Assembly: GCF_000150275.1 (NCBI RefSeq)
Contig: NW_002060944.1
Coordinates: 189,614-253,613 of the forward strand
Direction of reading: 5' to 3'
Length of the DNA stretch: 64,000 bases
DNA from: Trichoplax adhaerens
Taxonomy: Eukaryota; Animalia; Placozoa
The first letter of the stretch is position 1, and each line of letters begins with the position of its first letter. The notes under the pieces were generated by a model that was given only the letters and a program-made list of their open reading frames with translations, ran no database searches and was not told the DNA's origin. Positions 3,001 to 64,000 of this stretch are shown here, in pieces. Both the position numbers and the translations under genes were made by a program.

Positions 3001-4157
3001 TTTACGGTAAAGTAGAAGTTAGCCAACTGTTGGCAATAGACTGATAGACAACATATACTGTAGCACGATATGTGTCAGTATGGCTACTGGTATAGTTAAA
3101 ATTATAGTCTTAGCGGGTAGGGTCTCATCAAAAGCCAAAAAATTACTTCATTAAATAATCGAATAAAATGGTTAACGATAGAAAACATATTAAAAAGGGA
3201 ATAAGAACGTTTTATGACTGTAAAGTCGAGGAAAGAAGTACCGTAAAATACTTTTCTATCCAAGAAGTTCTCGAAAAAGAATAGGTCTCAAACCATGGAA
3301 TGGGCGTTTATTATGAAATAATAAAAGATACCTTAGTCAAAATGTCTGTATTTCGAATCGATGCATCTCTTTTTAATGATAGACTAGATTAAAATGTTAA
3401 TTAGTATTAGTTATTACGTACTTTTCCGGTAAAAAGGCAATCGAAGATGAAGGTATAAGAGTTAACTGATTGTCATATGGCACTAGTAAACGTATTATAC
3501 GTGTATAGTAGAAGGGTGTTTATTCCGTTTTACCACTATTGGAACAATTTTGACGGTAGTGGAAATTTCATATAGTTTTATCATTATCATTGGAATAGGG
3601 AATAATTGTAGGATACATATAGTTGGAAAAGGATAAAGATGGTTAAGAATATCCTCAACAATATTAAATGGTAAGTGCAACCCTTTCCTACATTATAACC
3701 TTTCGTATAATTCCAATACCAAACTATTCATTCCACCGGTTGGCGAAATAAATTGAAAATGAATTAATTACCACACCATACTTCTCTGTTCATCGATTTG
3801 CACGAGTAGATTATATCTGGCGAATTTATAGCATCGCTGTACATAAACGATACAGCGTTGCACTTGTATTGACATTATGCTGCTAGGTCAACTTCAAGAC
3901 GAATATATTGACTATTTGCAATATGTATAAAATTTCTGTTAGACTAGTGAATAGGATAAAACATTTTTCTTACGATCATCTTTTGGTGCGGCTGTCAAAT
4001 CTACTCCGGCGAGTAGCGATTGCTTGTATTTTACTAAACTTTCATCATCCGCGTCTAGATTTTTAATTTCATCTAAGGACTTTTGTGCTGGTGCCTTATA
4101 TCCCGGGGTTTCTTCTGGTTCTTCGTTCAATGGTTTAATATTAGATTCTTCGGCCAT
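1..4157 (-). CDS. ARHGDI: Rho GDP-dissociation inhibitor (5 coding exons, 3' end runs off the window)
   Basis: Exons 4157-3974, 1591-1520, 1073-997, 474-411 and 153-1 join in frame via GT-AG: [133 protein letters not shown]. These are canonical RhoGDI motifs. Confidence 0.97.
866..903. repeat. 13-bp perfect inverted repeat in a RhoGDI intron
   Basis: gtcattttgcaaa (866-878) and tttgcaaaatgac (891-903) with a 12-nt spacer; a third attttgcaaa follows at about 916-926. Confidence 0.8.
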
Positions 4158-17507: not shown

Positions 17508-18074
17508 ATGGTTAAATAATACGTAACACTTGTTGGCGTGCCAATCAAAGAATTAGAGAAAGGGAATCATCCACATGTATACATATACCTTAAAGTTGAA
17601 GGATCAGAGTGTTATAAGGCGGCACTTAATGTGAAAGACTATAGTGGCAAAAATATTATGTACGTTTGGAAGGAAGATTTACAGGCTAAATTTTTGAATC
17701 ATTTAAAATCATTGTCTATAGGTGTAGATAATTTCAGCTGTGCTGCAAAGTCTGCCGCTATTGACTATGTTCAAGAAGGATTTATTATTCAAGAGTAATT
17801 TAGCGAAAAAACTGCTGAAGAATTGACACACATTTTAAGTACAACTGTAGATGATATGGTACGCGTATGTGCCCGAAATTCTGAGTCTAAGAATTTTTGT
17901 GTGGGATCAATGTTTAATCAAGGAATACACGATATCTATATGAATCAAGGGGAAAGAAAGTACGAATGCATACGAGGATGTGGCCTTAATTTTCTATGAT
18001 GGCATTGAAGACCAACATAGTGGTGCATTCTTTTCTTTCAAGAAGAATCTTCAGCCTGTGACACTCAAGAATAG
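17508..18074 (+). pseudogene. YukJ/DUF2278-like pseudogene, copy 1 (intronless)
   Basis: MVK*YVTLVGVPIKELEKGNHPHVYIY..YKAALNVKDYSGK..AIDYVQEG..E*F..GSMFNQGIHDIYMNQGE. In-frame TAA at 17517 and 17796 plus a frameshift near 17965. Colinear with the intact copy at 23166. TATA-like tatataaata at about 17396. Confidence 0.9.
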
Positions 18075-19295: not shown

Positions 19296-21264
19296 TTACA
19301 CTTCTAATTCCATCGATTTCCCCATCAATTGTTTCATATTCATAGCAACTGCTTTACAAATAGTTCTTTTATCACCTGTAGTATCAAACGAGGTACGGGA
19401 AAAAAATACAGCTATAGCTAAAGAAACATATGGCATTAATATGCCGACTACAATATTACCGAGTGAAGTAGCCAAATCATGGTAGATTAGAATTATAGTT
19501 ACGGTGTAACCAATTTCAAGAAGTAGCACCAGAAGACAGTTATAAAGCAGTTGTTCTACACCTGGAAGATGTAATAGTTGAGCTGCTGAGTCGTAAATGG
19601 AAAGTCTTATCCATTTCCGGCCGTTCAAACTTTCAACAATGTTGAAATTTGATTGTACATCCTTCCACTCAATTATATTAGCTAATTTACTAATTGTTTT
19701 ATCGGAATTTTTTTCGTTAAATATAAAATAGTGTTTGGACACAGGTTTTGTGGAATGTTTCCTGTTGGAAAAAGTCTTGGATTTGGTGAATAAATTGATT
19801 AGCATCAGGGGAAACTTCGACCAAAATTTGGTTATCGCTTCGATAAGTCTCAATGCATACAGGAATATCTTTTGCATTCAATTCATTAAATAATCCTAGT
19901 ATATATTGCTTTCGATTAAAGTGTCTTTGGATTAAAGCAATCAAAGTAACTACAAAGGGTAATTGAGTTGCAAGGAGAGGCAGCATTCCGCTTGGATGAA
20001 CAACGCCAATAATAATATTAGCCAGAATACTACTGCATAAATTGGTCAATTCGTAACAGAGTAAACCTAAAGACATCGTAAAATAGATTATTAAAAAGTA
20101 ACGATACCATCGACTGGATTTGATGTTAAATTCATTGGCTTTGAAAGTAATCACAAAAATAAATATGTGCAACTGGAACCAATGTACGATTTTGTAAAAG
20201 AATCCTTGATCAACAAAAGTTGCAAACCAATCATTAGATGCTTTGACGTAATTGACACAACCTCGTGCAATCTTGTTTCTTGTTAAAGTGATAGCTACGA
20301 CAGTAACGATCATGCCTAGTAACAGGTTAATGATGAGAAATATGACAAGGCTAGGCAACCAATATAACAAAATCATCAACAAAGTGCTTAGATCTAAATG
20401 TGTATATATGTATCGAAACTTTTGAATATTGAAAATTGAACAGAGAAATGGAATCATGCCACCCAAAAGTAATATGAAATGAAGGAGAAGTATTTGATAG
20501 CACTTCTTTTTCGGAATACAACGATAAATAAATAGTTTTACGGCGTCTGCAGTATCGAATACTTGATATAAACAAATCACTTGCTGGCCTTCGATAGTGG
20601 TCACATCGGTTAAAGTCGACCTTGAAGGAGGTCTGAGAATCAACAGAAATAACTTGAAAACTATTGCTGCAGCAACGATATAAAAAATGATTTCTACATA
20701 AATTAAAGCCAAATCATTTCGTGGTGGGACTACTATAATTTTATCCAACACATTTTTAGAGCATTGCCCTGAGTAAAAAGAACAAGCATAGAATTCTTTT
20801 TTATTATTAATATTTTGTATATTCAAAAGGCGTGCTAGTAAATATTCAGTGACGTTTCGGGTTATATCTGGTGGTTGTAACCTTTCATCTTTAACCGAAC
20901 AATTAAACACTGATGCAATATGTACGGGAGTTTGACCAGCGGTCAATAGATACTGTGGCAAAGCACATAATAGACTAGCGAAATCGTCTGATGTGTGGAA
21001 TAAAAAGTATCCCTCTTCCTTGCATACCATATAATTACGCTAATAATAATAGTAGAACCGAGGTGTGTAATTATTAGCCTTTAAATCGATATTTACCCAA
21101 TAACACGGACGATTTCGTTGTAGCATTTTCCGCACGAGTTCGTCATTTGTGTATGCTAACGTTTTGCTATCTTTGATTTGGCAAAGGGAGTAAGCTTTGA
21201 GTATCTGTGATATGACTAACAAAAGTATTGGGAAAGGCAATGAAATCGATTTAACTGCCTTCAT
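19296..21264 (-). pseudogene. Intronless ~655-aa multipass membrane protein gene of unknown family, broken by one nonsense codon and one +1 frameshift (pseudogene or assembly error)
   Basis: ORF 21264-21040 (signal peptide MKAVKSISLPFPILLLVISQILKAYS) is in frame with ORF 21030-19717 across a TAG at 21042-21040. ORF 19877-19296 takes over near 19717 (..TLFYI to NEKNSDK). The span is 1969 nt = 656 codons + 1. Cys-containing ectodomain followed by about 8-9 hydrophobic segments. Confidence 0.75.
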
Positions 21265-23050: not shown

Positions 23051-23165
23051 TAGATAGAACTGGTTTATCTCATACGGGTCTCTGAAGTATCATTGACGAA
23101 GATTTTCTATCTCAAGGTTTGCCTAGAAATCACTATACTGTATTCGCCATATTAGTGTGTGAGTG

Positions 23166-23786
23166 ATGAATTACTACCGGAAACACGAAACGTCTATAAA
23201 ATATGGTGCGCTTGTTGGAGTGCCGATAAGAGAATTCGAGAAAGGAAATCATCCACATGTGTACATATATGTTAATGTTAGAAAAGGCAACTATAGATCA
23301 TATGTTAGCAAAGAGGATTGCTATAAAGTAGCTGTCAATGTGCAGGACTATAGTGGCAAAAATGTTTTCTTCGCTTATAAGAAAAACTTGCATGCCGCAT
23401 TTTTGCAACGCTTACAATTCTTCTCTGCAGGTGAACATGTTTTGGAGCCTACAGCAAACTCTGGTGCTATTGACTATGTAAGAGGAGGATTTATTAAGAA
23501 AGAAGACTTTCGAGAGGAAACAGAAAGAGTACTATCACAACGTCTTCATGACATTGTATATGGTATGATAGCGGCATGTGAAAAACATCCTGACTCAAAA
23601 ATTTTCTGTTTCGGATCAATGTTTCCTGGTGGAATACACGATATCCATATGAATCAAGGGGAATCACGATACAGGAATAAGCAATATCAAGATGGCGCTT
23701 TAATTTTCTTCGATGCCAATAAAATGCAATATAATGGTGCATTCTTTTACTTTCAAGAAGAATCTTCTGCTTGGTATAGACCGTAA
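23166..23786 (+). CDS. YukJ/DUF2278-family protein, intact, intronless, 206 aa
   Basis: ATG 23166. Motifs YGALVG, HPHVYI, YKVAVNVQD, GAIDYVRGG, FGSMFPGGIHDIHMNQGE and YQDGALIF match the order and content of the DUF2278 (B. subtilis YukJ) signature YGVLKG..PH..AVNV..LDYIR..GIHDIHMNQG..QDG as I recall it. Confidence 0.88.
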   Translation: MNYYRKHETSIKYGALVGVPIREFEKGNHPHVYIYVNVRKGNYRSYVSKEDCYKVAVNVQDYSGKNVFFAYKKNLHAAFLQRLQFFSAGEHVLEPTANSGAIDYVRGGFIKKEDFREETERVLSQRLHDIVYGMIAACEKHPDSKIFCFGSMFPGGIHDIHMNQGESRYRNKQYQDGALIFFDANKMQYNGAFFYFQEESSAWYRP

Positions 23787-27613: not shown

Positions 27614-28194
27614 ATGAATTCCTTCCGGAAAAATGAAACATCTATAAATTATGGTGTACTCGTGGGAGTGCCAATAAGAGAATTCGAGAGAGGATTTCAT
27701 CCACATGTTTAGATATATCTTAATACTGGAAAAGGCAAGTGCAACCCAAATATTGACAAAGAGGATTGTTATAAAGTAGCCGTCAATGTGCAGGGCTATA
27801 ATAGCAAAAATGTTTTCTTCGCTTATAAGGAAAACTTTCAAGCCTCATTTTTGCAACAATTAAAATACTTCTCGGCAGTTCAATATGAACAGGAGCCTAG
27901 AGCAAACTCTGCTGCTATTGACTATGTAAGGGAGGATTTAAGAAGAAAGCAGACTTTAAAATGAAAACAGAAAAGAACTATCAGACCATCTTCATGGCAT
28001 TGTATATGATATGATAGCCGTATATGAAAAAATTCCTAACTTAAAAAAATTTTTGTATGGGATCACTGTTTGCTGGTGGAATACACGATATCTATTTGAA
28101 TCAAGGAGAATCACGATTTAGGAATAAGTAATATCAAAATGGCACTTTAATTTTCTATGATGCCAGTAAAATGCAATATAATGGTGCGTTCTTC
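27614..28194 (+). pseudogene. YukJ/DUF2278-like pseudogene, copy 4
   Basis: MNSFRKNETSINYGVLVGVPIREFERGFHPHV* (TAG 27710), then CYKVAVNVQGY..AIDYV, several frameshifts, GGIHDIYLNQGESR. The 3' end is deleted and fused directly to block C. Confidence 0.92.
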
Positions 28195-41436: not shown

Positions 41437-44400
41437 TTATACTATGGCTAATTTCTCCATAATAACCTTGCCACCAGCTTGTGAATGCCGATATCGCGCC
41501 AAATCAACACGTGTGATAATTCCTATTACCTAATCGATATAATTAGCCTCGTAAGTCAGAGATTAATTTAATCTACGCATTAATGCGCATACATATGCCT
41601 TGAAAGTATCTGCACTACAGTATTACGATAGAACATAAAATTTGTTTACTTGATTTTTGCTGTTGATCACGACTATATGACGAAGACCCAAACCACGGAA
41701 TAGCCTATACAATCGTGGGAAGGACATGTTCTAAAGGAAATAAAATTTCAGGATACTTATGCATTTATATCTTGATCGATGTAGAAAGATACGAACATTA
41801 AGATAGCGTTAAAGCAAAGTTCAATTTTGCAAATCACCTCGTATACTGTATACGGGGACGGGTTCATAAACTTGGTTAAGTCAATAGTCTTATTCATATC
41901 TTCAGGTGGGATTTCACACTGTAAGGTAGAATTTATAAAGTATTTGTACAGCAGTACTTATTTCGAATAGTCAACAGTAGCAATGCTACATCTCTAGTTA
42001 CCTAATAGAGACATTAGCTATTTCTTTTATAAAATTAAAGTAACTGTGTCAGATAGTATCCTTGTAAATAAAATGAGTAAACTGTTACAAACCAAATAAT
42101 ACTCTATTTTTCATTACTTACTGAACACACTCTGTGAAAGTTAATTGTTCATTGATAACTGATGACTATATATTAGTCTTACCGAAAAATCATCGTGCTT
42201 GCTGTAAAAATGTTTAAAGGTATCGAAATCCTTCCCATTCAATCGGTAGTCTTTTAAGGGATGGTTGCTTTTATACAGCTAATGAAATAAGGGAATTATA
42301 ATAATTTAGTAATGGTGATAATTGATGAATATCAATACATTATATGTCCAAGTGGGAAAAATTGAAGTATTCAACAGTTACTTGGTTGATATTTGCATCA
42401 TTTCAAACCTGTAATTCTAAAATGGTCTTGAGTTCAGAAAGTAAGATTAAACCAATAAGTCTTCCTTTAACATTAGTATTATTCGCGGTAGCCGCAGTTC
42501 CCTCAACAGTCTTATTAAAGTAGGATAGAAAAATTTAAATTTAAAACAATTTTAAAAGAAAACTGCGCTGAAACACAATTATGAAGGTATGTGCACTAAC
42601 CAAGTTATCAACTACATCGTCATCAACAACTGGGTAGCCATTATGCCTCAAATCAGCATCTTTAATAACAGTGTAGATATCGGCCACCTTTTGTGAGTTT
42701 TAAGCAAATTTATTAGCTTGGACAGCCACAGTGTAATTACTAAAGTTATACATCATATCCAAGAATCATCATATTTACTCTTTCCGTTTTGCGTAAGGTA
42801 ATTACAGATTCGCAAGTTAAATCTCTGTAAGTTTTAAAAAAATTCACGACGTCAGAAGTGAAGAGCATACAGCCCTACTCTGTATACACTCCAACAATAC
42901 TAACTTTACGGTCAAACTACCAGATAAATCTGGCGGTTCCCAAGGCAGCAAAGGCACTTTCATTAATTGTACGTGAATGTCATATAATCCCTATAAAATT
43001 TCACATAAATAATTACAGATGGAAAATAAGTGTGTAAGAGTACCAATAGTAACAGTGGTTTTCACATGTATGGTCACAACATATTACCTCGTTAAAATAA
43101 TCACCAACTAATTTCGAAATTAAAATAACCACCATCAAAGGTAATCCAAACGCAATATCGCCAATAGCTTCGACAAGAATTACAGTAATGCTAATCGTCA
43201 TTCTAACAACGCCAGCTAAAAATACATAAAAATCAAGACTGTATCAGTAAAGCTTTCAATTAAGACTTCGGTTCTGGATATTTGTATCAAAATTATTATT
43301 TCCTAATACGTTTACCTAACATAGCCGCTGCTCCCATGAGAGCATATCTTCCCGGACTTGACCATTCCTGCAATACATGATAGGATTATAAAAAACACTT
43401 AATGTGATAAGCACTTTAATTGCATGGCTTACTTGTCCTGGAATTAAGTTAATAAGTTCTCCCAAAATCCTTCCCCACGCTGCACCAGTTAGGATACAAG
43501 GCACGAATAATCCGCTGGGTACATTAACTCCATAGGTCCAACAAGCGGTGAAGAAGAATATTACTGTAAACCAAATTAATGTCGGTATAGTGTATAGACC
43601 TATAATTGATTTGAAATATGCAACAATTCATTATAATGTAACCTGCCGTCTTGGTAGATGTACAGTGCTTGTACAATTTTATCACTATTACGAAATTATT
43701 CTTTTGCAAACCTTGTGGTGTGTGAAACATATTTTTAATCGCTTTCTCTGGCGTATTTAAAAACAATGTCGCCATTGTATTATAGTCGCCATTACCGCAC
43801 TTAAACTAAGTAAATGGTGTTAATAATGTTAAATGGTTGTAATTTTTCTTAATTACTCACTTAATACAACAGTCATTTAATTACCGATGTAAAATTAAAA
43901 GTTTCCAGTTCTGATTGTATGGCTTCATACTTTGGCTGACAGCCTTGATTTAACGATACAGCCAGGAATGCAGCAGCTGTGCAAACAATGATAACAACGA
44001 TCGCCTCCAATAATTTTAAATAGCTCTTTCGAATATTCCTACAAACAACGCAAATATCGGTTAGTGAATTGCTTATCGATTCATGGGCTAGAAATAAAAA
44101 AATTAGGAGCTATCCATTCACTTACCTCATTCTATGCAAGGATAATTTATAGTTTATGTAATTAAATAATGCGCCAAGTAATCCTCCTAAAAATATAGTA
44201 GATCAAATCAAGCTAAGGCGAAGAAAAAGAATAATTAGAAGCAATAGTATATTTTCTATTCTTGTTATTTACCAACAATGCCCATTAAGAAGAAAATAGG
44301 TAGCTCATAACCGTAGTAAGTGACACCCTGAAATGTTTGAATTTGGTTCGAAAATAAATAAAAAATTAAACTGAACAAATTATTTTAATGTTTTTATTTG

Positions 44401-47519: not shown

Positions 47520-49830
47520 AGAACCCGCGTTTGTTCTACTTTGCTTACTGTATGCACTTGTACTTTTTATTATACAATTGTCAGAATAGGAGCCATTTTT
47601 CCAATCACAACTTGAGCAACTCTGAGAAATCATATAAAGCTTGTCGGATTTTTCTAGAGTGGGGGTACAGGCTGTACAGTAATTGTAATGCAATATTTCT
47701 CAGCAGTGATACTAATGGTGTCTCCTCAGGTAGTGATGATGTTACATATATAATTAATCCTATTAAGATTTAAAGAGGTTCAAGTTCCTTCTCGAAATTT
47801 GCAAAATCTTGATACATTAAAATGGATATTTTACGTTTTATTCAATGGATGGGAAAGATTTGTCCTGTATGGAACGTGATGCAGTTGCGTTAGTATTGGA
47901 TGCTTTTAATGAATTTTATCAATGGTCCAGTTCTTCTTTATTTTCCATTCCATAAGAATCAAGTGTATTCATGCTGAGGAGTACATCTGCGTATAAGTGT
48001 ATGCGTTGATCGATCTCTTAAGTTTAGAAAACCAATTAAAAGCGCACAAGTGTTTTACTAGAAGTCCATCTTGTATAAGATATAACGACATTGCTTTACT
48101 CGAAGTAAATGATTCAAGTTGAACATAGAAATGTGTTTGCCTTATTCACTCCAATTATGGGAAATAAGATACTAATATAGATCAAAGTAGCTCATACCTA
48201 TGGCATGCTGTCAAAGAAGAGATGATGGCAATCACTTGACTCACAGTCAATACCATAAAGTTTAGAAGCGTTTATTATCTCTGAATGTTTCTATCGATAA
48301 ATGAATTAGATGCGTATGTACGCTCGTATATTCAAGAGTTTATTTTCCATGACATTGATTGGACTGATGAAGGACATCAACCTGATGTTCTTTTCGCTAT
48401 CATTTGAAATTTATAGTCGTTGATTCTACGGTCCATCAAGAAGTTTATTATTCGATCAGACATGTGCGCTCAAGAGTTTTTATTCCATTCTACACTGTTG
48501 CGGTATGAATCGTTGGCCATGTCCTATTTGGCGTAATCATTTCAACTTCATTTTCAGATTTAGTATACTATCGATGAAAGGAAAGAATTATGAAGGACCA
48601 GTACAAGTTATCGTTGTAATCAGGTCTACGCTCGTATATCCATGGTGGAATAGGATAGACAAAAATAATGTTCAAGCGATACTGGTCTTACCGACTAATT
48701 CACAGATTGAATCTAGGTACGATCCATAGCACCATCGTTCAATAACGATGCTATGATCATTATAATCAAGTGTTTACGTTGATTTTTTAATTTTTATTTC
48801 ATAGCATGGTTACTTGCGACTGGTAGAAAATAGCAAACTACTGTACCGTGGTGGATAAAAAAGTATGTTGGCAAGAGAAAATTTTGTTTTCAAGTGGTCG
48901 ATAGACAGAATCTGCAAGTGTATTTTCGATTTAATAGAAACAAAGTATTGGCAATGTTGAACAAGATGATTCTCCTCTTCTCGTCCAGGATGCATGACCA
49001 AGTTGACTATTGCCTTGTCGATCGATCGATCGTATTGGTTCTTTATCGTAGATACACCAACAACAATAAACTATCCTCTATTGGTTTCATGTCAATGATA
49101 TACAATCCTCTTGGATGTCTTAGATGCTCATTCGCCCCATCCATGCTTACTCCTACCTAGCATAAAGATGGGATCCTACTGAAAAGACTCCAATTGCCTA
49201 TCGACTGAATGGATCGTCATGGTAATGTTGTGATTGAAGTTGGACCCAACCAACCTTGCACTTGAAGTAAACTAGCTACGTCTCCTAGCGAGAGAAGATA
49301 GCAAATCACTTACGTTTTGAAGGTGAGAGTGCATTAAAGGAGATTGCTCGCCTCGTTTCACATTCAATTTGACCATCTTGCTTGCTCTCTCTTAATGCTT
49401 GTCAACAATCATGGAGAAAATGGCTTTCCAAGGCTTCCGACATAGCTTGGCAAATGGATGGAAAGATTGAAGGGGGGGGGCAGTCGTTCCTACGTCCTAT
49501 GACGTCAACGATAGCGGGTCTGTGTCTCCAGTAGCACGTACGCGCTCGCGGTACGTGCTCACTGAGGGACGACAGTGCAGTAGAGTCAGAGCTGATCGAG
49601 TCAGACGCAGTACTGGTTTGCTGCTGCTTGCGCGTCAGTGTCTGCGAGGTGGAAATCACGTGGTCTACGCGAGATTGAAGTGGAGTTCCCTACAGTACTG
49701 TGCGTACAGTACATTAGTGTTACACTATTGTACTGTACAGTACTGTAGAAGAAGGTCTTCCTTGGTCTTCTTGTCTGGTCTTTTTCTACTCTAGTAGTCG
49801 ATGATACAAGGGATAACTTGACGAAGCACA
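47520..49830 (-). pseudogene. Unidentified decayed spliced gene
   Basis: Protein-like frames with scattered stops: KRKISILMYQDFANFEKELEPL*ILIGLIIYVTSSLPEETPLVSLLRNIALQLLYSLYPHSRKIRQALYDFSELLKL*LEKWLLF (~47840-47580) and DVASLLQVQGWLG..HLRHPRGLYIIDMKP..DSVYRPLENKIF (~49284-48813, bounded by AG and GT). Donor gtaag at about 49313. Confidence 0.4.
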
Positions 49831-49994
49831 ATCTGTCCAGTTGTAAAAAAGAATTTCTACACTGTACAGGGTGTACGGAATGTGTTGCTACGAAAAAATG
49901 CTAAATTTCGTGTAAAACTAGGTACCCTGTACACTTATTTTGAAGGGTCTCAACTGTACAGTAGACTACACCAATACCGGTGTAACTTGGCAGA

Positions 49995-50450
49995 CAGTAG
50001 TGTACAGTCTATTTGATACAGTATCAACTTCAAACACTGTAGCAAAACCTGAACAGTACGTACAGTACAGTAATACTGTACAGTATAGTGTACAGTGTAC
50101 AGTCCGCCATTTTGGGTCCTGTATTCTACTGTACAGTACAGTGTACAGTCTACAGTATTTGGTACAGTATTAGCTTCAAACACTGTAGCAAAACCTACAG
50201 TATACTGTACAGTACAGTACAGTACTACAGTATACAGTAGTGTACAGTGTACAGTCCGCCATTTTGGGTCCTGTATTCTACAGTGTACAGTCTATGTGGT
50301 ACAGTATCAACTTCAAACACTGTAGCAAAACCTGTACTGTACTACAGTGTACAGTATATAGTGTACAGTACTGTGTATCGACGTACAGTACTGTAGAGTT
50401 CGCCATTTTGGGCCCTGTACTCTACAGTGTACAGTGTACACTGTACAGTA
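49995..50450. repeat. Three-copy ~145-bp tandem repeat filled with CAGTA/CTGTA 5-mers
   Basis: Box A cttcaaacactgtagcaaaacct at 50028, 50174, 50311; box B cgccattttggg.cctgta.tctac at 50105, 50257, 50401. Spacers are built largely of TACAG/TACTG units. Confidence 0.92.
50104..50410. promoter_or_regulatory. Three YY1-type motifs upstream of MRPL12
   Basis: CCGCCATTTTG at 50104 and 50256, TCGCCATTTTG at 50400; YY1 consensus is CCGCCATNTT. They lie 290-600 bp upstream of the MRPL12 ATG. Confidence 0.5.
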
Positions 50451-50697
50451 CCAAGAGAGAGTACGGAAGAACGACAGCTCCATGTGCTATACTGCTGGCA
50501 CGACACTGGTCAGTACAGCTTACGCATACTGTACTGGAAAGTGCAGTCTGCAGCAAACGTCCAACCGGTCCACCCTACAGTACCCCATGTTGCATACTAC
50601 AGTACACAGTAGACTGGACTGGACTGGAATGGACTGTAGGAGGAAAGGCCAGTCCAAAAGCAATCACGTTGTGCAAGGACAGAAGGCTTCAAACAAA

Positions 50698-52337
50698 ATG
50701 GTAGCCATGACCTCGTTGAGAAGAATTGCTCATTTTCTACCACAATCCTCATCGATGTACAGGTTTGCTCAATCATATCATGAAACCATGCAATAACGTA
50801 TTAATACTACTATTGCCAATCACCAATACGCTAATCATGATAACTTGATCGCATACTACTTCAAGTCCAGCTAAAAGTCGTTTAATCGAGCACATTGCTG
50901 CTTTCAACGCCACCAACAATAACTCACCAGCGATCGACGTAAACCATAACTTATTCCATTCGATCATGCTAGTGGAGACTGCAATGATGAGTGCAATAGT
51001 TCACCACTACAACATAAGTGTACTGGTTATTACACAGTACTGTACAGACAGTAATGTAATCTCTTTCGATCCACGAGCTACGCTCAAGTCATAGCACACG
51101 CAATAGCTGCTTCGACCTACGCAATCCACACCAATTGACGGAATTCAAATTGGTCTCGATCATATTTGACCACGACTGTCGGAAACGATGATAGCGGACT
51201 AATTGGATTCAATTCTACTAGTTATGACAGTGATTTCAGGATCATGGTGTCAGCGCCAATACTATTACAGTAGACAGTACAACGAGATCGACACATAATG
51301 TCTTCTTTTTGTTATCAACTTCCTTGCAATCATCCTATACAATACTGGACTGGAACGTCATGACTGCTATGGCTAGTTTTATTCAATCAAAGTGAAATTG
51401 ATCCGCCTTGAAGCTAACGTAGGAATCATTTCTATTCATTTAGGGTACTTGCACAAAGAGCACCCAATGCTTGTATTATAGTAGCCTCGAGGAATTGCCA
51501 AACGATGCCTAAACCATCGGCGGATGATCAGCCAAAAGAATATCCAGAAAAGATTGTTAATATAGTCGATAATATCTCGCAATTGACGATATTAGAAGTG
51601 GCCGATCTCAACGAATTATTAAAGGTACATGGTTAAATAAGTAAAAAACGTGTAGTAAAGACCCTAAACCATAACTCTATCCGTGAACGTAATCATCGCT
51701 GAGTAAAATGTTATTTTATCAAAACTCCATAGGCCCGCCTGAATATCAGCGATGCACCGATGGCAATGGCTGCTATGCCACAAGCTGCACCAGCTGCTTC
51801 GGTATGTTCTATCTCGACTTGACGTCGATGCTTAGTATAACTTTAATGTATCACATCATGACTTCCCAAGGGATATGTATATACATACACGTATACTCGT
51901 ATATTACATCAAAATCAGTAATATTCCTTTCAATCATTTCTACAGCAAGAACCTGCTGAAGAGGAGGAAGTACAGACTGAATTTACTGTCAAATTAATGA
52001 AATTTGATGATGCCTCAAAAGTTAAACTAATTAAGGAAATTAAAGCTCTAGTCGATGGAATGAATTTAGTCCAGGTATGACATACTCTTCCTTAGTATTA
52101 TTAAATAGCCCTCGAAGGTATATGTGTTCTATCTTACGCAGTACACGGTCATTATATAATCATAGCATTCCCTTTTATACAATCCTGCTGACCTACCATT
52201 CGCATTGTATTCATTGTTAGGCCAAAAAATTTGTCGAAAGCACACCTCAAGTAATCAAGAAAAACATTTCCAAGGAAGAAGCAGAGCAGCTGAAAAAGAC
52301 TTTAGAAACTGCTGGTGGAAGCATTGTCATCGAATAA
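50698..52337 (+). CDS. MRPL12: Mitochondrial ribosomal protein bL12m (5 exons)
   Basis: Exons 50698-50762, 51444-51624, 51733-51801, 51946-52074, 52221-52337. Transit-peptide-like MVAMTSLRRIAHFL.., then KEYPEKIVNIVDNISQLTILEVADLNELLK, an Ala-rich hinge, and FTVKLMKFDDASKVKLIKEIKALVDGMNLVQAKKFVESTPQVIKKNISKEEAEQLKKTLETAGGSIVIE*. Confidence 0.96.
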
Positions 52338-53278: not shown

Positions 53279-56200
53279 TTAATGTTGTAGTGGATTAAGG
53301 AACCACATACTGCCTTTATTAGCACAGACGTCCTACAGAATATTATAGATGAAATCGTAACATGATTAACATTAATTCAATAGTCTATTAATAAGCATAA
53401 GTTCTGCTAATTCCATACTAAAAAAATGACATACCTTCACAATCTTTAGATATTGCTTATCATTTGGTGCTTCGCCAGTTTTTTCAACCATAGCTAAGAC
53501 AATCTCCCTGCGGCGTAGTTTAGCCTTGTCTTTAAATAGATCTAGCAACACTTCTCTATACTAGAGGCATTTAGAAAGATTTCATATTCATTTAAACTAC
53601 CGTGATTTAATTATTAACCAACAATACCCGTCTCATTGAATGTTATAATTGAAGGATGTTTAAAAGTAAAACGCTGAATTATAAATACACAATAGTACAA
53701 GTATACAAACGTGATAATCTAAAGTCATTCATTTACCTTATCATTAGTTTCATTTAATTTCCGTTTAACATATAACTTTGAGGGTGTTTCATTTGGTGAT
53801 AAAGGCTAATATGCGATATTGATAGTAAGTACGACGATAATTAGTGATAATGGTGTATGACATGAAATTTATCATATAATCTACGTAGGAAAGTAAGAAG
53901 ATCATTATATTCTACCTGATGTTCTAGTTCTGTCACTCCAATTTCTTTTAAACATCTCTTTAACGTATTGTCGGAAACTCCTTTTGCCATAATATGATCC
54001 TCCTTTAAAGCTGTATTCAACATCATTCAAAATGAATCTTACTGGACGTGTCTTGTGTAAGATTTCGGCTTATCTTAGACAGGATTATCGACAAAAAATG
54101 ATTCATACTAACTTCCTTGGTAAAGTAATAACCGTCTTTTTAGTGTTTCTAAGCTATAAATTGAACGATCAAAGATTTCGCATAACCAGTTCTTTACAAC
54201 AACGATTAATTCATCTGGTACAGCTGAAGTATTGTTATTGTCATCATTTTCCGCCTGCTTAAGCTCGTTCATACGATCAGTTGTCTCTGCTACAGATTCG
54301 TCCACATCCATTGGCTCATCCTTAATTTTGATATCATCGCTACTGTTAAAATTACTTTGCTGAGCTATTGCCCCATCGGGAACGTTAATTTTAATCTTGC
54401 TGTTACTTGGGCCGTCAACAGAACTAGAGTTTGCATTTACATGTTTCGCAGCAAGTTTTTTAGCCATTTTAATACGTTCTTGGCCAGATATGATTGCCTT
54501 ATCTTTACCCATCACCGGTTTTTTATCTTGTACTGTCTCTGACTGGACCCCAGTCGGTTGAGTAGGTAATTTTAACCTTAATTTTAGTCTGTTAAACATA
54601 AAATAGAACATAATAAATGGGAAGTTACTAGCGTTATACACAAAATATAATATATGAAATTTATTACGCCAATTGTCTACAGCTTACTGCTGGTATTTCT
54701 TTTCCCAGTATTGTACCTGTCGCTGAGCTACATCAGGATACCTATTAAATTACATTGTAAAAATTACATATGGATTACAGTAAGGCTAGCGATAAGTTAT
54801 CAATAGTGCCTCATGCGTTACCTTTCAATAAATTGATAATCGTACGGCAGGCAAAATTCCCAACCTTTTGTGACACGAAGAAGGGCTACTTGCGTCATGA
54901 TTTCTTTCAAATCCTCGCTAGGTAGCTGACGAGCATATTACACGGAAGTTTTACTTTCAAGCACTAAACTTCTTTGACTTTGTTATGCGAATATATTACT
55001 ATGACTATGCATACAATACTGTACAATCTAGTAATGTATCACGCAGACTGTGTACCTTAACTACCATAGATATTTCTTTCCTGCTGGTTATACGAGTTTG
55101 TGTAAACTTCCATAACTGCCACAAGATACATTGCGATATTAGTAAACAACTATACTCGAGTACGTAAGAGCATAATAACACAATTTGTGAGGCATTTCAT
55201 TGAATTTACATCAACGAAATAAATCTCAACATAAAATCAGAGGAATACAATACATACCAGATAATCTCGAGCCAAGCACAACATATCAGACGGGATACCA
55301 GTAATTGGGCTAGTAGTTCCTTTTGGATAGAGCAGTTCACTAATTCGTTTAAATTTTTAAAATCATATTTAGTCATTTCATTTATCACATCAATTAGAGT
55401 GCTAAATCGTAAATAGCCATATTAATTCTATAAATCAAGACTGAACCTTTTAACTATCCAACACCCTTGTACCAGAACTGCAACTTGTTGCAAATATTGA
55501 ATAATGGCCGTATCATCGATATCAGAAGGCTTTGAAAGGATAGTGCCAAGCTGGCTGAACTGCATTGCTTTCGCTTTTATATTAGTGCATGAAATTTAGA
55601 AAGGAAAGTTTAAAAATTTTTGCTGAGCAAATAAATACCATATTGCAGTCTTTAACATACCACTGAGAAGAATCGATTTAATCTGTTCTGGTAAGCTCAT
55701 TGTTTTCAATTGTGTAATGGACAAGATATTTTCGGGATTAACCGAGACACTATGACGAAATAACATAGCAAAAATATTGCAGGACATTTTGAGAAATATG
55801 ATTGCATGATTATAAGAGTGCCAATATTAGATTGCTATTTTTACCTAACTTCCGCTGGAGGAGGCGGCATTAACGCATCCAAATAGCCTCTACGATGAAA
55901 CATTGTGCATACAAATCTTTACATTTATACATCACTAACCAAGATTTTAAAAGAAAAGATAATCATGTACCTATACGCAATAATGCAAAACTTACTTGGC
56001 AGATATACCGTAATCACATGTAATCTCATCCATATTTCCATTAGTTAATAACTCTCTTTCCACAGTGGCCCTGGTATCATCTCGACCCACAAACTCTGCT
56101 TCAATCCATTGTTCTTCAGCATTCTTCTTTTCAAGATATGCGTGAGAGCTAATTCGATAGGCCTTGGCTTGATCAGACTCAGGGACAGCATATCGAACCT

Positions 56201-58749
56201 AAGAATTGGCGAATAATGCAAATATGAAATATAATGATTGCTAAATGCTCTTAGGTAATCAAATAGTATGATTTAAAAATGAACATACAGTAACCGGTTT
56301 AATGTCTTCCTCTTCTTCGGAATCTGATTTTACAATGCCGCTATTGCTATTATCTAATTTTCCTGTACCGTTCGCACTTTCTGCCATATTAATATAATCA
56401 AAACTAGGCCGTAACTGAAGCATAGCTTGCACAGGAGTTACATGTAAAGCATCTAAGTATTAAAAAAATAGAAAAGTCTTACTTGTTGATTTAAATCTTG
56501 ATGCAAGGTACAACATAATCGGCCTTTTGATGTTATTACAAACAACTTTAAGTAATCTATGCAACGAAATAAACACTTACTATTTTTCATAATCCCTACA
56601 GCATAACGATCATTATTTTCTGCCTTCATAGAAGCTAGCACCTGCTTATCCATGACAGAACTGTAAAATAAAGTTAACCTATTACAATAGATCAACATGA
56701 CAATGCCGCGCTAGCTACCGTAGGACCTGTCTTAATCTACATCACGCAATTACTATTATCTAAGGACAAATTAATTGTACGAAATGAATTAATTTTAGAC
56801 CAATAGACAATCATACTCATCCTAAATACCAATGCTATACTTGTGTTAATCGAATAGTAAATATGCAATAACAAGATACTTATTTAACTAAAAAGGTTAC
56901 AACCTATTATAAAAAGTCTGATTGTTTCCTTTTAGAGAGTTGGATTCATTGACCGCTCGAGCCATATCTTCACCTTTATTTGTACAGTAATTTTTTTCAG
57001 TATCGACCGCTACTTCTAGTTCAACCTATAACAAGTTTCATTAACGAGACAATGAGTTAAGCTTTGGATATTAGAATCGTGGTCAAGGCCAAAGCCTACT
57101 TACCTTTTGCTGTTTTGGCTTGATACGAGCTTTCATGCATGATGTGTCAGCGTAAGGCATCCGAGTGGACCTTACCGGATACTAGAATGGATAATATTCA
57201 ATTACAACGAATAATTTTCAGTTGAGTTCCTAAAAACCTGTTCTAATAAACTATCATAGCAAAACGTAAATTGGTGGTTTCACGTCGATTCTAATTACCA
57301 TAGTAGAGTATCATGGATTAGTAAGTAGTGCAGAAAGGCATGCATTGCTCTACATCGTACAGTATTATGTTTACAAAAAATGATTTGTGAATACTTTAAG
57401 ACGATCATTCGAGTCGAAATTTTAATTCATTGTGCTGGTGATCAGCAAATATTTTGCTGATTTCGCCAACAAGTAAATTGATTATAAGCAAGATGGAGTT
57501 TTATCTAACAGAGCCTTAAATGACTGTTAAAAGCGATCGTAAAGGACGATAACTTATTATGTGAAACAGATTATAAGAATTTCATCTATACTTAAATGAC
57601 TGGTGCTCTATTTTGTTGTAAGCCAAGCAAGTCGTTGCATTAGCTAACACGTTGTACTGCAACCACGATTACGAGCAACTCCCAAATTTACAAACGGCTA
57701 CCATATTCACAGCCACAAAGGATAGGATAGAATGTATTTCACGTTCTGTATCGTTCAAAATTGATAGTCAACGAGTATACTTTACTGCGATCGTCATTAA
57801 AATAATGCATAACATAAAATTAATCGGGCTGGCCAAGTATCATTTCAGTTCAAAGTTCTACAATAATTATGAATGCATCGCGGCCTATTTTTAATATTGT
57901 GCAGGTTTAACAAGTATTAACTTGCACGATAATGGAATATTTCACTTTGTCGTCAAATCGTGTAGAAAGATATACATATTAAGAAAATACTAGCTTTGCT
58001 ACAAGTATGAATTCATCATTGGTATCCACTTATCATATAGAATATTGCAATACCTCAATGGACATGATTTCTAGTGGAAATATTGTCAAACAGGTGAATG
58101 CTATACCGTATTCGAGTCTCTAGGCTTGTCAATCCGGCATTGACTGGAGTAATGATGGAGATTACTCTTCAATACAAGTCGACAACTAAATTTCATTAAT
58201 ATGTTGCCCGTGTGGACAGAAATCTGATTAGCCTATCATCCCTCCATGGTTGGTGTACTACTTTTCCAGGCTCTTGTTAATGCTACAGTAGAAGATTATT
58301 AACTCAAGTCTGCAATGACAAGGAATGAAGACTCCACAACGTCAGGAATGAATTGAACGGGATAACTCATCATCCTTCCATTGTAGTATTCTATTCATTA
58401 ATAATCATGCTAGCAGACTTTATCGATACTAATCAAGATCTGTCTTCATGATATTATTAACAGGCTCATTTCATTACAGCTATCAGCTTACCATCATCAG
58501 GTATAAATTATCCTTTAAATGATGAGACAAGTAGACGTCGATCTATGAAGAAAAGCACAACATGAACTTTATTCTTATTCATGTTCACAATTAATAAGCT
58601 TTCATTGCCTTTCAAGAACTTTTCCATGATAGTAGTATCTAGATTAACTAGTAGGATGATGGAAAAAGTCAATTTTATACCTCTTTAACAACAGGATCGT
58701 CTTCATCGCTGCTCTCACTCGAGTTATGGCCACTTTCTTGCTCAGCCAT
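53279..58749 (-). CDS. POLR3E: RNA polymerase III subunit RPC5 (about 18 exons)
   Basis: DEDDPVVKE/IDVYLSHHLKDNLYLMM/YPVRS..KARIKPKQQK/VELEVAVDT..NYCTNKGE, ALHVTPVQAMLQLRPSFDY, VAVLVQGCWIVKS, ARDYL/LWKFTQ, GWEFCLPYD, C-terminal winged-helix region ending DVCANKGSMWFLNPLQH*. Confidence 0.95.
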
Positions 58750-58965: not shown

Positions 58966-60450
58966 AATGGCTGCTGAAAAGATTCGAGTAATTGATAAAT
59001 GAGAATATTATAAGCTGAAAAGTCAGACTTTTGAGATCAGGTAGGTAATCCTAGTTTGCAGTTAGCTGAAGATCAGCTGCTATTGGACAGATACTATGAT
59101 ATTTTACATCAATATTGGATGAAAAACTTAAAAAAATGAGGATTTAAGGGTCTGGTATTTTTGCCTGCATCTTATAGTTGGAATATGGCTATAGATTAAC
59201 GATATGGAGACAATATGGATTTGCACAGGATACGTAGAGTATATCAATATATATCTAAGGTTCAACTAAATAGCTGCTGCTGGATTTGAGAAATTGATAA
59301 AACCTGAAAGTTAGACTTTTAAGACCAGGTAGACGATCTTAGTTTTGCAATTAGCTGAAAATCAGCTACTATTGGACAAATACTAGGATATTTTATATCA
59401 AAATTGGAGGAAAATTTTTTAAAATGAGGATTTAGAGGTCTGGCATTGTGCCTGCATGCTATCCTAGTTTGAAGGCAGCTATAGATTAATTATACGGAGA
59501 CAATGTGCATTTGCACAGGTGATGGCATAGAGTATATCGATATTTGAGGTCAAACCAAATAGCTGCTACCAGATTTAAGAAATTGATAAATGAGAATGTT
59601 ATAACTTGGAAAGTCATACTTTGGGGACCAGATAGACGATCCAAGTTTGCAATTAGCTGAAGATCAACTAGTATTGCACAGATACTATGATATTTTATGC
59701 CAATATTGGATGAAAAACTTAAAAAAAATGAGGATTTCGAGGTCTGATATTTTGCCTGCCTCCTTCCTATTCTAGTTATAAGATGGCTATAGATTAACTA
59801 TATGGAGACAACGTGTATTTGCACTTATCAATACTTGAGGTAAAACTAAATAGCAGCTGCCAGATTTGAGAAATTGATAAATGAGAATATTTAACCTGAA
59901 AAGTTGGACTTTTGAGACCAGGTAGACGATTTTAGATTTGCAATTAGCTATAAAGATCAACTGGTATCGGACAGATGCTATAATATTTTATGTCAATATT
60001 GGATACAACAACTTGAAAAATGAGGACTTGAAAGTCTGATATTTTGCCCGCATCCTGCCCTAGCTTGAACATAGCTATAGATTAACTACATGGAGACAAT
60101 GTGCATTTGCACAGGTGATGAGATAGAGTATATCGATATTTGAGGTAAAACTAAATAGCTGCGGCCAGATTTGAGCAATTGATAATGAGAATGTTACAAC
60201 CTGAAAAGCCGGACTTTTAAGACCAGGTAGACGATCTTAATTTGTAATTAGCTGAAGATTAGCTACTAGACAGACACTCTGATATTTTACGTCAATATTG
60301 GAAGAAAACTTCAAGATCAAGGATTTGGAAGTCTGTTATTTTGCCTGCATCCTGTTCCAGCTTGATGCTAGCTATAGATTAACTACAGGAAGACATGGGT
60401 ATTTATAAAGGTGATGATAACACAGAGCATATCAATAGTTGAATCTAGAC
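58966..60450. repeat. About 295-bp tandem repeat, five diverged copies (plus a relic to about 60610)
   Basis: Anchor aattgataa at 58990, 59292, 59581, 59872, 60177. Shared blocks include gaccaggtagacgat, ttagctgaagat, atgaggattt, gctatagattaac.a.a.ggagaca and tttgcacagg. Indels are not multiples of three. Confidence 0.95.
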
Positions 60451-61776
60451 CAAACTCAATTTACTAATACTAATAATATTGTAGGCTGAAAGATGAGAGC
60501 TTGAGGTCATGTATTGAGTCCGAACTTGCAGATATAGCCGTAGGTTAACTGCTTGGGGACACACTCTGATTTAATGGAATTGTAGAGTACTGTACAGTAT
60601 AGTATATCGGTAGGGGAATATAAATGACTGGCAACTATCTATGTTAAATAACCCTATGTATGAATATTTTGAGCTCTATTTTTCATGGCGTAAAATCGTC
60701 CAATATTCAGTATAATAATTAAATGCACCAATTGATGCTTCACTGCATACATAAAATAAAGAAGTGTGATAAAATATTGTACATATTCCGTGATAATACC
60801 ACCCATCCTTCCTTGAAACGAGCAGTGCGGGGGTCATTTATAGTACTGTTAGATGACTCTGATTATGTAGAAGATTCTTACAGTACTTTTTACCTCAAGA
60901 TTTCTTCATGTAAAACGAATAGCTCTAAGGTAGTCATTTCTGCAGAGTACTGATTATTGAAATAGTATTCGTTACATCGTTAAGGGTGGCCACTGGGCCT
61001 TTAAATTTTGATTTCAATTAATATTCTGATGAAAATTGATATAGAATTGATCACAGTACTAAGGACATTGTACCGCACTGTCGATATCTTACAGTACCTG
61101 CTAATCTTAACTTGGTATGTCCATCACCGTACATTAATTATCATCATGTGCTTTGGACCATTAACTAATCTTAATATAGCATTTCATCCGTGAATGCATT
61201 ATTAAAAAGTAGTATTCTAGAAGCATAGCTGTGAATATAGTAGTGCCTGGCTATTACCGGGATATAAATAATGTCGAATGGCAATACTATCTGTTAATTA
61301 TTAAAAAATAAGTACATTATCGTAAACCGTCAGCAAAGCGACGTGAATTTGTACTAGTTTATAACTAAATATAGTACATCATCCTTACCATAAATCGAAG
61401 AAGTGTGATAAATAATGCACATTCCGACAAATTGATGCCTGAATCAACCATCATACCTGTACATCATTCTAGCTATAAATCATATACAGTATTAGTAGTT
61501 GATAAGGTATGATTGAGTCTTCATCTTGAAAGCTCTCACTAGGAATTGAGTATAGCCGAGCCAATGCTCTATTGCATGGTGCAAAGATTTAGCATTTTAA
61601 TTAATTATTCCAGATTTAACACCTTTGGAATCTTTCCCATACGGACAGTCAACGAACAATTGTTGTGTGGATACCCTCTTATAAGTTAGCTAATAATATC
61701 GTCTAGTTGTCTACTGTCTTATGATAGCAACACCATAATTGAAATCAATTTTGTAGAACAGTCTTGCTATCTAGAA

Positions 61777-64000
61777 ATGGCTACGCATAAAAATATCCGC
61801 TCTACCATTCAATATTTTCATGACAATGATGCATTTTGTAAAATTATTCCTATCGAACATTTATTATCACGTCTTGTAATGAATAAAATTATCTTGAAAA
61901 AACATGCGGCAAGAATAAAGCGTAAAAACTGCAGACAGGAAAAGAATCAATTATTCTGTCAGATTTTACGAAAAGAAAGAAATGAAACTAATTTTATGAC
62001 ATTTTGCGATTTATTGTGCTGCGAATACGATCGAAATGTGGCAGAGATTGGACGCACTTTGCATGATATGGCCAGCTCACCAGGTATATCCAATGTAATA
62101 AACATGTGATTATAAATATTGAAATGAAGGTGTAAAGTAACAATAATTAAAATACTAATTGCATTCAAGAGGTATTGGCAATAATGTCTTTCCATCGACT
62201 TTCTGGAGCTACTGTAAAACTTAAAGTATTTTCGATAGTACACTGCACTCATTTATTGCTATCTTATCATCGTGCCAATACAATACTGGTATTATTATGA
62301 GAGATATTAACAAAATACTAATAAATTCACCTATGCATTTGTCTACTTTTTCTTCAATTATAGCATGTTGGAAAGAAGACAGCTATCAAAATTTCTCGCT
62401 TGACAGCTGTATCAAACCCCTAGCTGACCTTAATTTAACTTCTTTCAATTCTCCACAATATCATGCACTAAAAATGCAGCATGATTCCAGTGGTGCTCGA
62501 CTACCAATTGGATATGTAGCGAACATCAAAGTAGAAGAACTAATTGCAATACAAAATCGGGAAGTCAAGAATCGAATCCAGTCATTGGATTTATTTTATC
62601 AAAATCCCTTCATTAAGTTAGGAGTTTTTTTAAGGGCAACTGGTATTCCGGTAACATTAATTATGGTATTGTGGCAGCAAGATTTCATTTTTTCGATGGA
62701 TATACTACAATATTTAGCCAAAGTAGGCTTACTAACCTTGTCCAAGAAAAACGAAAGGTAAAAAATCGAATATCCTTTTAGTTCTAAGAATAGGAATGGC
62801 CCATGATCGGTCTCATCCCAATATAGCTAGGTCCAATATTTGATCATTCAGTATAAGTACGATTATTTAATTCATACAGCAGCATTGACTAAAATATGAC
62901 GTCGATTTATAACATAACAGTAATGAAATTTCTCCCCGTAAATAATCCTATTTTATTGCTAGCCAATGACTGAAATTCAAGCTGTGTATAAATAAGCCCT
63001 GCAAACACTATATGCTGTTATTTGCAACTACAAAAATTTGTTTCACAGAAAATACCTAAAGTAGAAGGGTTAAATTTTTGGATATTTTTTCTAAATTCAT
63101 CCATTTGTTACCGTGATTACTAGCATCTTATGATATTAAAATCATGTTTTACTATATAGTAATAACAGCTGTAATATTTCCAGCAACGCCACCGTTAAAG
63201 TAACTTATTTTCAATCAATTGTCTAGATGATCCCAATAATACCATTCTTAATATGTACCAGTTAAGTTATTTTCTTAGTATATATGCTCTATTTACGATT
63301 AAACTTGAGGTCAACCAGTGAGAAAAGTGATATTAGTAAAATTAGATCCTATTTATAAGCATATATGTCACTTATAGAATGGAAGTTTTCAGTAAAGCTA
63401 TGGAAAAGCAGGCTAGGTTTAGTTTAAATGCGAATGATAATTAATAAATTTGTCCGTAAGGCGGTTTAAAAATATCAATTTTAATCTAAAGGCCCGGCAG
63501 TTTGCATTTCCTGAGTTGAAAATTTTACGTAGCTATCGTGACCATAAAATACCGCTAAACTAGGCAGGATTGGACAGAAGTTAAAGCCATATTTGTTTTG
63601 ACAGTTAAATTTTACTTTCTGAACACGCACCGCAGAATGTTCATTTTTGGGATTATTATACTTCCTGGATAACGAACAGTACAACTTATAATTACTAACT
63701 TGGTTTATAAATTTATGCCATAAAGATAAATGATTAATTCACATGGATATATCTTTATTTTAGGAATTGCTGCAATATCGACGAAGACGCGTTTAAATAC
63801 GTTCAAAATATCCAGTCTTATAAGCCCGATTGTCATTCTTTGCTTTTAGATGAGCTAGAATTACAATGTCATGGAAACTGGCACGAATTGCCAAATGATG
63901 GCTATATCTATCATTATCTTGTAAATCATGAGATAGCAGCAAACAAATTTAAATCAGTAAAATCGCTTATAACTAATTTGCGATGGCTTGATTGTAAAGT
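61777..64000 (+). CDS. Apaf-1-like protein: CARD-like death fold + winged helix + HD2, no NB-ARC ATPase (3' end runs off the window)
   Basis: Exons 61777-62083, 62364-62757 and 63764-64000 join in frame (phases 1 and 2). Exon 1 is CARD-like (IPIEHLLSRLVMNKII..RIKRKNCRQEKNQLFCQILRKE..NFMTFCDLL). Exon 2 FIKLGVFLRATGIPVTLIMVLWQQD..DILQYLAKVGLL resembles the Apaf-1 WHD. Exon 3 CHGNWHELPNDGYIYHYLVNH..KSLITNLRWLDCK resembles Apaf-1 HD2 (APAF1_C). Confidence 0.8.

Follow-up and report, generated by a model that had tools for sequence, protein, structure and literature searches.

The plus-strand gene at 61777–64000, at the end of the 64-kb window (the whole stretch of 64,000 nucleotides that was analysed), is an ATPase-less derivative of Apaf-1 with an open frame. 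It joins a CARD, through a linker, to a winged-helix domain (WHD), HD2 and two predicted beta-propellers, and its ATPase is missing from the DNA itself, beyond the gene model. We refer to it as the NBD-less gene.

Gene structure and domain content

Predicted splicing, read from the DNA, joins the three main exons (Table 1) into 312 in-frame codons with zero stops and GT-AG borders. The chance of 312 stop-free codons is ~2e-12 at the intronic stop frequency of 0.083 per triplet, and the linker has a coding-like GC content, compared with 28–31% in the introns. The earlier note had described three open, phase-compatible exons, and all three were found with their splice borders intact; it had overlooked a possible 39-nt micro-exon, which is skipped by the window's own gene model and used by a second one. 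These two models were the only proteins retrieved among 178 candidates with exon 2 as a query, each being 100% identical across the query: P0001 (996 aa, the window's own model, on a 9.7-Mb contig) and P0002 (1100 aa, on a 590-kb contig of a second assembly). Aligned over 996 residues, the two models disagree at 8, and P0002 carries three exclusive segments, one of them the micro-exon, an insertion relative to the paralogs, whose alignment has a gap there. The earlier note had also pointed to possible breakage of the downstream exons and to further C-terminal domains past the window; the frame stays open through full-length P0001 and P0002, and these models complete HD2 and add the two predicted propellers. 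No shorter, transcript-derived protein of the gene was found among 606 candidates. Sequencing runs X1, X4, X5 and X8 cover its introns without joints and therefore behave as DNA. At 85% likeness, runs X16, X17, X18 and X21 contributed no contig, a result that bears on expression in neither direction.

Table 1. Positions of the parts of the NBD-less gene and of other features in the window
Feature	Positions	Strand	Remarks
Exon 1: ATG and CARD, residues 1–102	61777..62083	+	307 nt; ends in phase 1, GT next; CARD profile match; helical in the model
Intron 1	62084..62363	+	280 nt; GT-AG; phase 1; 28% GC; sits where NBD-HD1 exons would be
Exon 2, whole	62364..62757	+	394 nt; ends in phase 2
Exon 2, 5' part: linker of ~70 aa	62364..62575	+	no detectable NBD/HD1 likeness; 38% GC
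Exon 2, 3' part: WHD, from residue 174	62576..62757	+	profile z 12; pLDDT 82–90
Possible micro-exon, 13-aa insertion in the WHD wing	63378..63416	+	39 nt; AG/GT borders; pLDDT <50
Exon: WHD end and start of HD2/APAF1_C	63764..64000	+	HD2 from about 63828; open to the window edge
High-copy interspersed repeat	60850..61430		just 5' of the ATG; summed contig depth of run X1 ~14,000–42,000, flanks ~85
Tandem array of a 288-bp unit	59003..60385		4.7 copies, 75% matches; lies between the NBD-less gene and the start of RPC5; no recurrence elsewhere in the window
RPC5 (RNA polymerase III subunit) gene	~54100..58749	minus	divergent; starts about 3 kb upstream of the NBD-less gene
GC-richer stretch with a low-complexity repeat	49400..51100		~40% GC; long open frames on either strand
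CLC chloride channel exon	43319..43627	minus	
Related frames, at least three	17520..17795, 23163..23783, 27713..27961	+	one scanned: DUF2278, E 1.9e-28, above cut-off
440-aa open frame and adjacent 193-aa frame	19299..21039	minus	no Pfam match for the 440-aa frame; hydrophobic stretches in both
RGS-domain gene exon	8259..8579	minus	
Rho GDI exon	3942..4169	minus	

Elsewhere in the window, the DUF2278-like frames are, by their sequence relationship, a small tandem family with an uncharacterised domain.

The domain order proposed in the earlier note, a CARD joined to WHD-HD2, was confirmed domain by domain. Pfam gave exon 1 a CARD match below the cut-off (E 0.03, 14.8 bits against 23.9), and an independent CARD profile was therefore built from 13 relatives, with the NBD-less gene left out. 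Exon 1 scored 53.6 bits against this profile, the best of 1000 shuffles reaching 11.7 (0/1000 as high), and a Death-domain profile found nothing in the exon; an N-terminal CARD is thus present. Exon 2 has a Pfam match to Dark_WHD below the cut-off (E 0.036), and the z score of 12 for its WHD segment against a WHD profile establishes the winged-helix domain. HD2 is present as well: the last exon matches APAF1_C above the cut-off (E 2.2e-6, 28.1 bits), and the full protein does so at 43.7 bits (cut-off 22.8), covering positions 3–134 of 135.

Structure modelling of the spliced protein, proposed in the earlier note, returned the same architecture. AlphaFold with a 28-row alignment gave a mean pLDDT of 65 (single-sequence AlphaFold, at a mean of 30.7, was useless), with a helical CARD (pLDDT 70–92 across residues 11–80), a poorly ordered linker (residues 85–162, mostly below 50), WHD and HD2 domains predicted with confidence, and an all-beta C-terminal part (residues 410–1100), in which predicted residues 420–789 match propellers at Z about 21 and the later part has lower confidence. 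In a Foldseek search with the model, Apaf-1 structures took ranks 1–5 (E 6e-25 to 9e-23) and Dark the sixth. VIA-align placed model residues 163–1100 on human Apaf-1 362–1248 (Z 20.2, rmsd 5.3, 633 aligned), a match that begins at the HD1/WHD boundary. In the untrimmed model the low-confidence linker was placed on human Apaf-1 310 onward; this placement is not independent, because HD1 rows filled those columns in the input alignment of the model. No Apaf-1 came up in PDB sequence searches with single exons or with the whole protein, and ESM Atlas gave WHD-type leads only.

The propellers are non-canonical. The full protein has only weak Pfam propeller matches, and its propellers carry one GH motif, no WD-type motif and a net charge near zero, compared with 6–7 GH motifs in canonical relatives; they are of the same divergent type as those on ATPase-bearing divergent placozoan paralogs. 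Such strong divergence, together with the lost ATPase, would suit a protein that has left death signalling and serves elsewhere as a double-propeller scaffold, its CARD being a generic docking module. We consider this improbable, as the CARD core is well conserved and paralogs that keep the ATPase bear the same divergent propellers.

Absence of the NBD and the nature of the linker

Missed NBD exons are common in gene models of the Apaf-1 family: 143 residues of the sister model P0119, for example, are absent from P0008. The absence of the ATPase therefore had to be checked in the DNA. At the protein level, neither a Walker A pattern nor a Pfam NB-ARC match occurs in full-length P0001 or P0002. 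An NB-ARC profile of 483 positions was built from 52 relatives in which Walker A and xHD are both present. Its match to P0002 begins no earlier than residue 174, equivalent to profile position 272 (E 2.5e-34), and by this measure ~200 residues, comprising the NBD and HD1, are gone. Walker A precedes the motif by 236–358 residues in the 52 relatives; in P0002 the motif position is residue 253, and the first 100 residues are CARD.

At the DNA level, a profile search for NBD and HD1 in all six frames of the window recovered only WHD and HD2 matches, tblastn with 13 relatives found no NBD stretch in the window, and the largest open cassette that can be placed in intron 1 is 102 nt. The earlier observations that Walker A and B are lacking and that the intron is too short to hold an NB-ARC therefore stand. 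A collapsed or missing NBD exon, the danger that the earlier note had foreseen, was sought in the sequencing runs: a contig of run X1 spans 61331–62509, one of run X8 spans 62025–62528, and neither has an insertion in intron 1. The two runs are different samples, which differ from the window at several sites. Since contigs of both cross the 280-bp intron uninterrupted, loss of the NBD by assembly collapse is ruled out. NBD exons lying upstream of the CARD were likewise rejected, as the 3 kb between the gene and the divergently oriented RPC5 gene hold no match.

A linker of ~70 aa followed by the winged helix had been described before, and both lie as claimed. MAFFT aligned the linker to the HD1 position, and by eye it resembles HD1. 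Its HMMER and pairwise scores fall within those of shuffles, its profile z is at most 0.63 against HD1, the NBD or the pre-Walker-A segment (the HD1s of four paralogs reach 17–41 and the gene's own WHD 12), and the number of conserved HD1 columns that it matches is reached by 45 of 150 shuffles. The Pro of the HD1 GxP motif is absent from the corresponding position, and pLDDT stays below 50 although the alignment contained HD1 rows. An origin of the linker as a remnant of HD1, the NBD or the pre-Walker-A segment, plausible by eye, is thus unsupported by four shuffle tests. No working HD1 can be recognised; judged by its letters, the linker would be a completely eroded HD1 or else sequence with no relation to it, and the loss of NBD-HD1 looks old whichever origin it has.

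Kinship, WHD surface and selection

A search of 1.84 billion representatives returned 117 proteins at E ≤0.001, with P0001 alone below 1e-30. Fifteen of the 20 matches looked up, including the four best after P0001, are named Trichoplax proteins. The NBD-less form was found in only two near-identical assemblies (0.8% apart) of one lineage, and no orthologue outside them appeared in searches that included the 1.84 billion representatives. The earlier inference of an Apaf-1 relative with neither NBD nor nucleotide site holds in this respect; its "early-animal" range was overstated. Paralogs of the same architecture, which it had proposed to count, amount to a single such gene: 102 of 126 proteins match across the WHD, nine of these have no NBD/HD1 match, and only P0001 and P0002 among the nine have a long N-terminus. 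The other seven start within six residues of the match and were set aside as fragments.

A WHD-HD2 tree was built from 26 rows, four of them outgroup, after removal of fragments, duplicates from sister strains and most rows of non-animal type. P0002 forms its longest branch (2.0 changes per site, ~20% identity to paralogs), lies outside the canonical animal Apaf-1 clade (95/96) and branches next to 13 divergent placozoan paralogs as their sister, at a support (87/79) that is not firm. On this tree the NBD-less gene reads as part of the Apaf-1 expansion already known in placozoans, on a long branch; the account of Trichoplax sp. H2 by Kamm 2019 (PMC6321704) gives at least 12 Apaf-1 homologs and two CARD-caspase-like genes. 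The NOD-like gene list in that account was chosen by NACHT/NB-ARC, so the present architecture falls outside it. Our literature search, which most subscription papers lay outside, turned up no account of a placozoan Apaf-1 without an NBD. One sentence in Krasovec 2023 (PMC10959488) mentions NB-ARC loss in Apaf-1 of the tapeworm Echinococcus granulosus.

The CARD of the NBD-less gene falls in a placozoan CARD clade (99/98). The nearest CARD is that of P0041 (RDD36912.1), with 35% identity over 99 columns and a BLAST E of 8.5e-17 in a set of 13 sequences; the sister relation is supported at 70/77, and a grouping with the CARDs of Apaf-1 paralogs is not rejected (p-AU 0.065). As either grouping is left standing, both deletion of the NBD-HD1 exons and shuffling of a CARD exon are possible. 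P0041/P0120 is a Trichoplax CARD-Death protein of 214 aa and a candidate adaptor. A complex prediction for the CARD of the NBD-less gene with that of P0041 scored 0.00, which speaks neither for nor against a pairing.

Human Apaf-1 combines a module of NBD and HD1 with a rigid rod of WHD, HD2 and WD2, and its WHD residues D365, K421, D439, D443, L364, M368 and L440 face the NBD/HD1, with H438 of the LHD/MHD motif contacting ADP, as the structure is described in Zhou 2015 (PMC4691890). What the NBD-less gene has lost matches the human NBD-HD1 rigid body, and the WHD-HD2-propeller rod is kept. With residues numbered by alignment to PDB 1Z6T and conserved columns defined in 19 animal relatives, the gene retains 19 of 25 such columns in the WHD and 33 of 36 in HD2. 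The six lost WHD columns are the equivalents of S371, K421, S422, H438, L440 and D443 (D439 is kept as Glu), four of which (K421, H438, L440 and D443) face the NBD, HD1 or ADP in human Apaf-1. The K421 equivalent is Val (62723–62725), and the LHD-L position, reported before as degenerate, indeed reads I-D-E-D (63777–63788), without the ADP-contacting His. Of 65 relatives bearing Walker A, 59 have K/R at the K421 position, 64 have the His, 64 a hydrophobic residue at the L440 position and 51 an Asp at the D443 position. In a leave-one-out comparison P0123 loses five and P0036 four of the same 25 columns, so only the identity of the residues is unusual, not their count; the comparison comprises six residues and a MAFFT register.

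Two Trichoplax Apaf-1 paralogs, P0036 and P0123, retain Walker A without the LHD His. In P0036, moreover, Walker B reads DE instead of DD and GxP lacks its Gly. From these motifs, the nucleotide switch of both may be altered. The earlier note took loss of the LHD as a sign of long evolution without a nucleotide site. The idea survives through the joint loss of K421, L440 and D443; the LHD by itself is a weak sign, its His being lost in P0036 and P0123 too. Erosion of the WHD with retention of HD2, as seen in the alignment, fits long selection without the ATPase.

A different reading would make the gene a relic of relaxed selection with little or no expression, its frame open through a recent loss of constraint or by chance. 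It would suit the longest branch in the tree, the lack of a distant orthologue and the exonic differences listed in the sequencing runs, four of six of which change a residue, with no sign of strong short-term constraint; relaxed constraint has been proposed for atypical Apaf-1-like genes by Krasovec 2023 (PMC10959488). About 1000–1100 open codons in two models, the intact splice sites, the conserved columns kept in HD2 and WHD, and a linker altered past recognition beside folded parts that have held, a contrast requiring long selection since the loss, make a relic distinctly unlikely. Protein divergence between the two assemblies (0.8%) resembles that of NBD-bearing paralog pairs, which is 0.5–1.3% in six of eight comparisons and 8% and 19% in the others; these variation numbers are small and too few to measure present constraint.

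Proposed function and comparison with known systems

Tentatively, we favour as a real possibility that the gene is an old, fast-evolving placozoan Apaf-1 paralog, likely non-oligomerising, which serves as a nucleotide-independent CARD decoy or regulator of the death or immune signalling of the full-length paralogs. The ring interface of human Apaf-1 measures 2805 square Angstrom, three quarters of it between NBDs and the remainder between a WHD and the HD1 of the next protomer, as given in the structure paper (PMC4691890). By analogy, ring formation would need both kinds of contact, and because most of the interface is NBD-NBD, an NBD-less protein would be expected to form no apoptosome on its own; as ADP holds human Apaf-1 in its resting state, such a protein would also not be nucleotide-switched. 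Its CARD would be exposed on a loose, poorly ordered linker and could compete for CARD partners, whether CARD-caspases, a CARD-Death adaptor or the CARDs of paralogs, and the divergent propellers would set where or when this competition occurs.

The retained WHD raises the thought that the protein caps growing apoptosomes of full-length paralogs, docking on a neighbour's HD1, as the WHD of one human protomer touches the HD1 of the next, and so ending ring growth. The same structural account (PMC4691890) puts the WHD-HD1 interface at about 763 of the 2805 square Angstrom, a supporting contact only, and entry into a ring would be weak because the NBD-NBD contact is missing; we hold such capping to be highly improbable.

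Rather than a decoy or regulator, the gene could encode an ATPase-free activator or adaptor, whose propellers bind a multivalent ligand or partner, so that clustering exposes and aligns the CARDs and recruits a CARD-Death adaptor or a CARD-caspase. Precedents are CARD8, which forms an inflammasome without the structured N-terminal domains of NLRP1, NACHT included (PMC7483925), and the WD40 region of human Apaf-1, which alone supports NF-kB signalling (PMC11747288). The kinship of the CARD with that of P0041 would suit this role, as would propellers that, being non-canonical like those of the divergent paralogs, probably do not have cytochrome c as their ligand. CARD8 has UPA as its self-oligomerising unit; the NBD-less gene has no recognisable unit of this kind, and its linker is poorly ordered. 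Moreover, Trichoplax sp. H2 has no RIPK1/2 orthologue according to the survey of Kamm 2019 (PMC6321704), and activation of this sort seems to us somewhat unlikely.

Because the propellers are of the divergent placozoan type, a ligand other than cytochrome c is probable. An extension of this thought, which we regard as unlikely, is an ATP-independent sensor, shaped by long selection on an Apaf-1 that has lost its STAND switch and has its CARD tied to the rigid WHD-HD2-propeller rod: the propellers would bind a ligand other than cytochrome c, possibly from the intracellular symbionts, and the CARD would gate caspase activation by the dozen paralogous apoptosomes. The symbionts of Trichoplax are tied to apoptosis control by conjecture only in the text of 10.1101/568287. 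If such a sensor existed, an animal Apaf-1 network would have a dedicated ATPase-less regulator.

The preferred reading, a CARD decoy or regulator, suggests that the placozoan Apaf-1 expansion has regulators of its own. The weight of the case is that of one gene in one lineage. Of the two rigid bodies that make up Apaf-1, the gene has lost precisely one and shows a surface altered to match. It is thus a natural tool for studying the roles of the CARD and the WHD-HD2-propeller rod once the nucleotide switch is gone. Surveys of Apaf-1 and NLR genes select on NB-ARC/NACHT, as Kamm 2019 did, and derivatives without the ATPase are therefore missed by design.

Among known systems, vertebrate Apaf-1 (PDB 3SHF, 3SFZ, 5JUY, 3J2T) shares with the NBD-less gene the CARD, WHD, HD2 and two propellers in the same order; unlike it, the NBD-less gene has no NBD, recognisable HD1, Walker A/B or LHD, its NBD-facing WHD residues are changed and its propellers are without canonical WD40 motifs. 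Since the tests for NBD and LHD fail, it is not a member of the functional Apaf-1 family. Its best sequence matches are the divergent Trichoplax paralogs P0036 (RDD41636.1), P0004 (RDD46820.1), P0124 (RDD41632.1) and P0009 (EDV24835.1), to which it is sister in the WHD-HD2 tree without firm support and with which it shares the CARD clade and the divergent propellers, some of them also being without the LHD His; these paralogs have an NB-ARC, whereas the DNA of the NBD-less gene has no room for one. Apaf-1 of Echinococcus granulosus is likewise an animal Apaf-1 said to lack NB-ARC (possibly a gene-model artefact), but the tapeworm gene is described in the same source as very little diverged from its relatives (PMC10959488), and the NBD-less gene is highly diverged and has a compensating surface change. 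CARD8, as described in PMC7483925, is similarly a death-fold regulator without the STAND ATPase of its relatives; its body is FIIND-CARD, in contrast to the WHD-HD2-propeller body found here. P0041 bears the nearest CARD and, unlike the NBD-less gene, is a small protein of two domains, whose CARD-Death order is that of RAIDD/CRADD. The CARD-only caspase inhibitors are also death-fold regulators without a STAND ATPase, with the CARD alone as their body.
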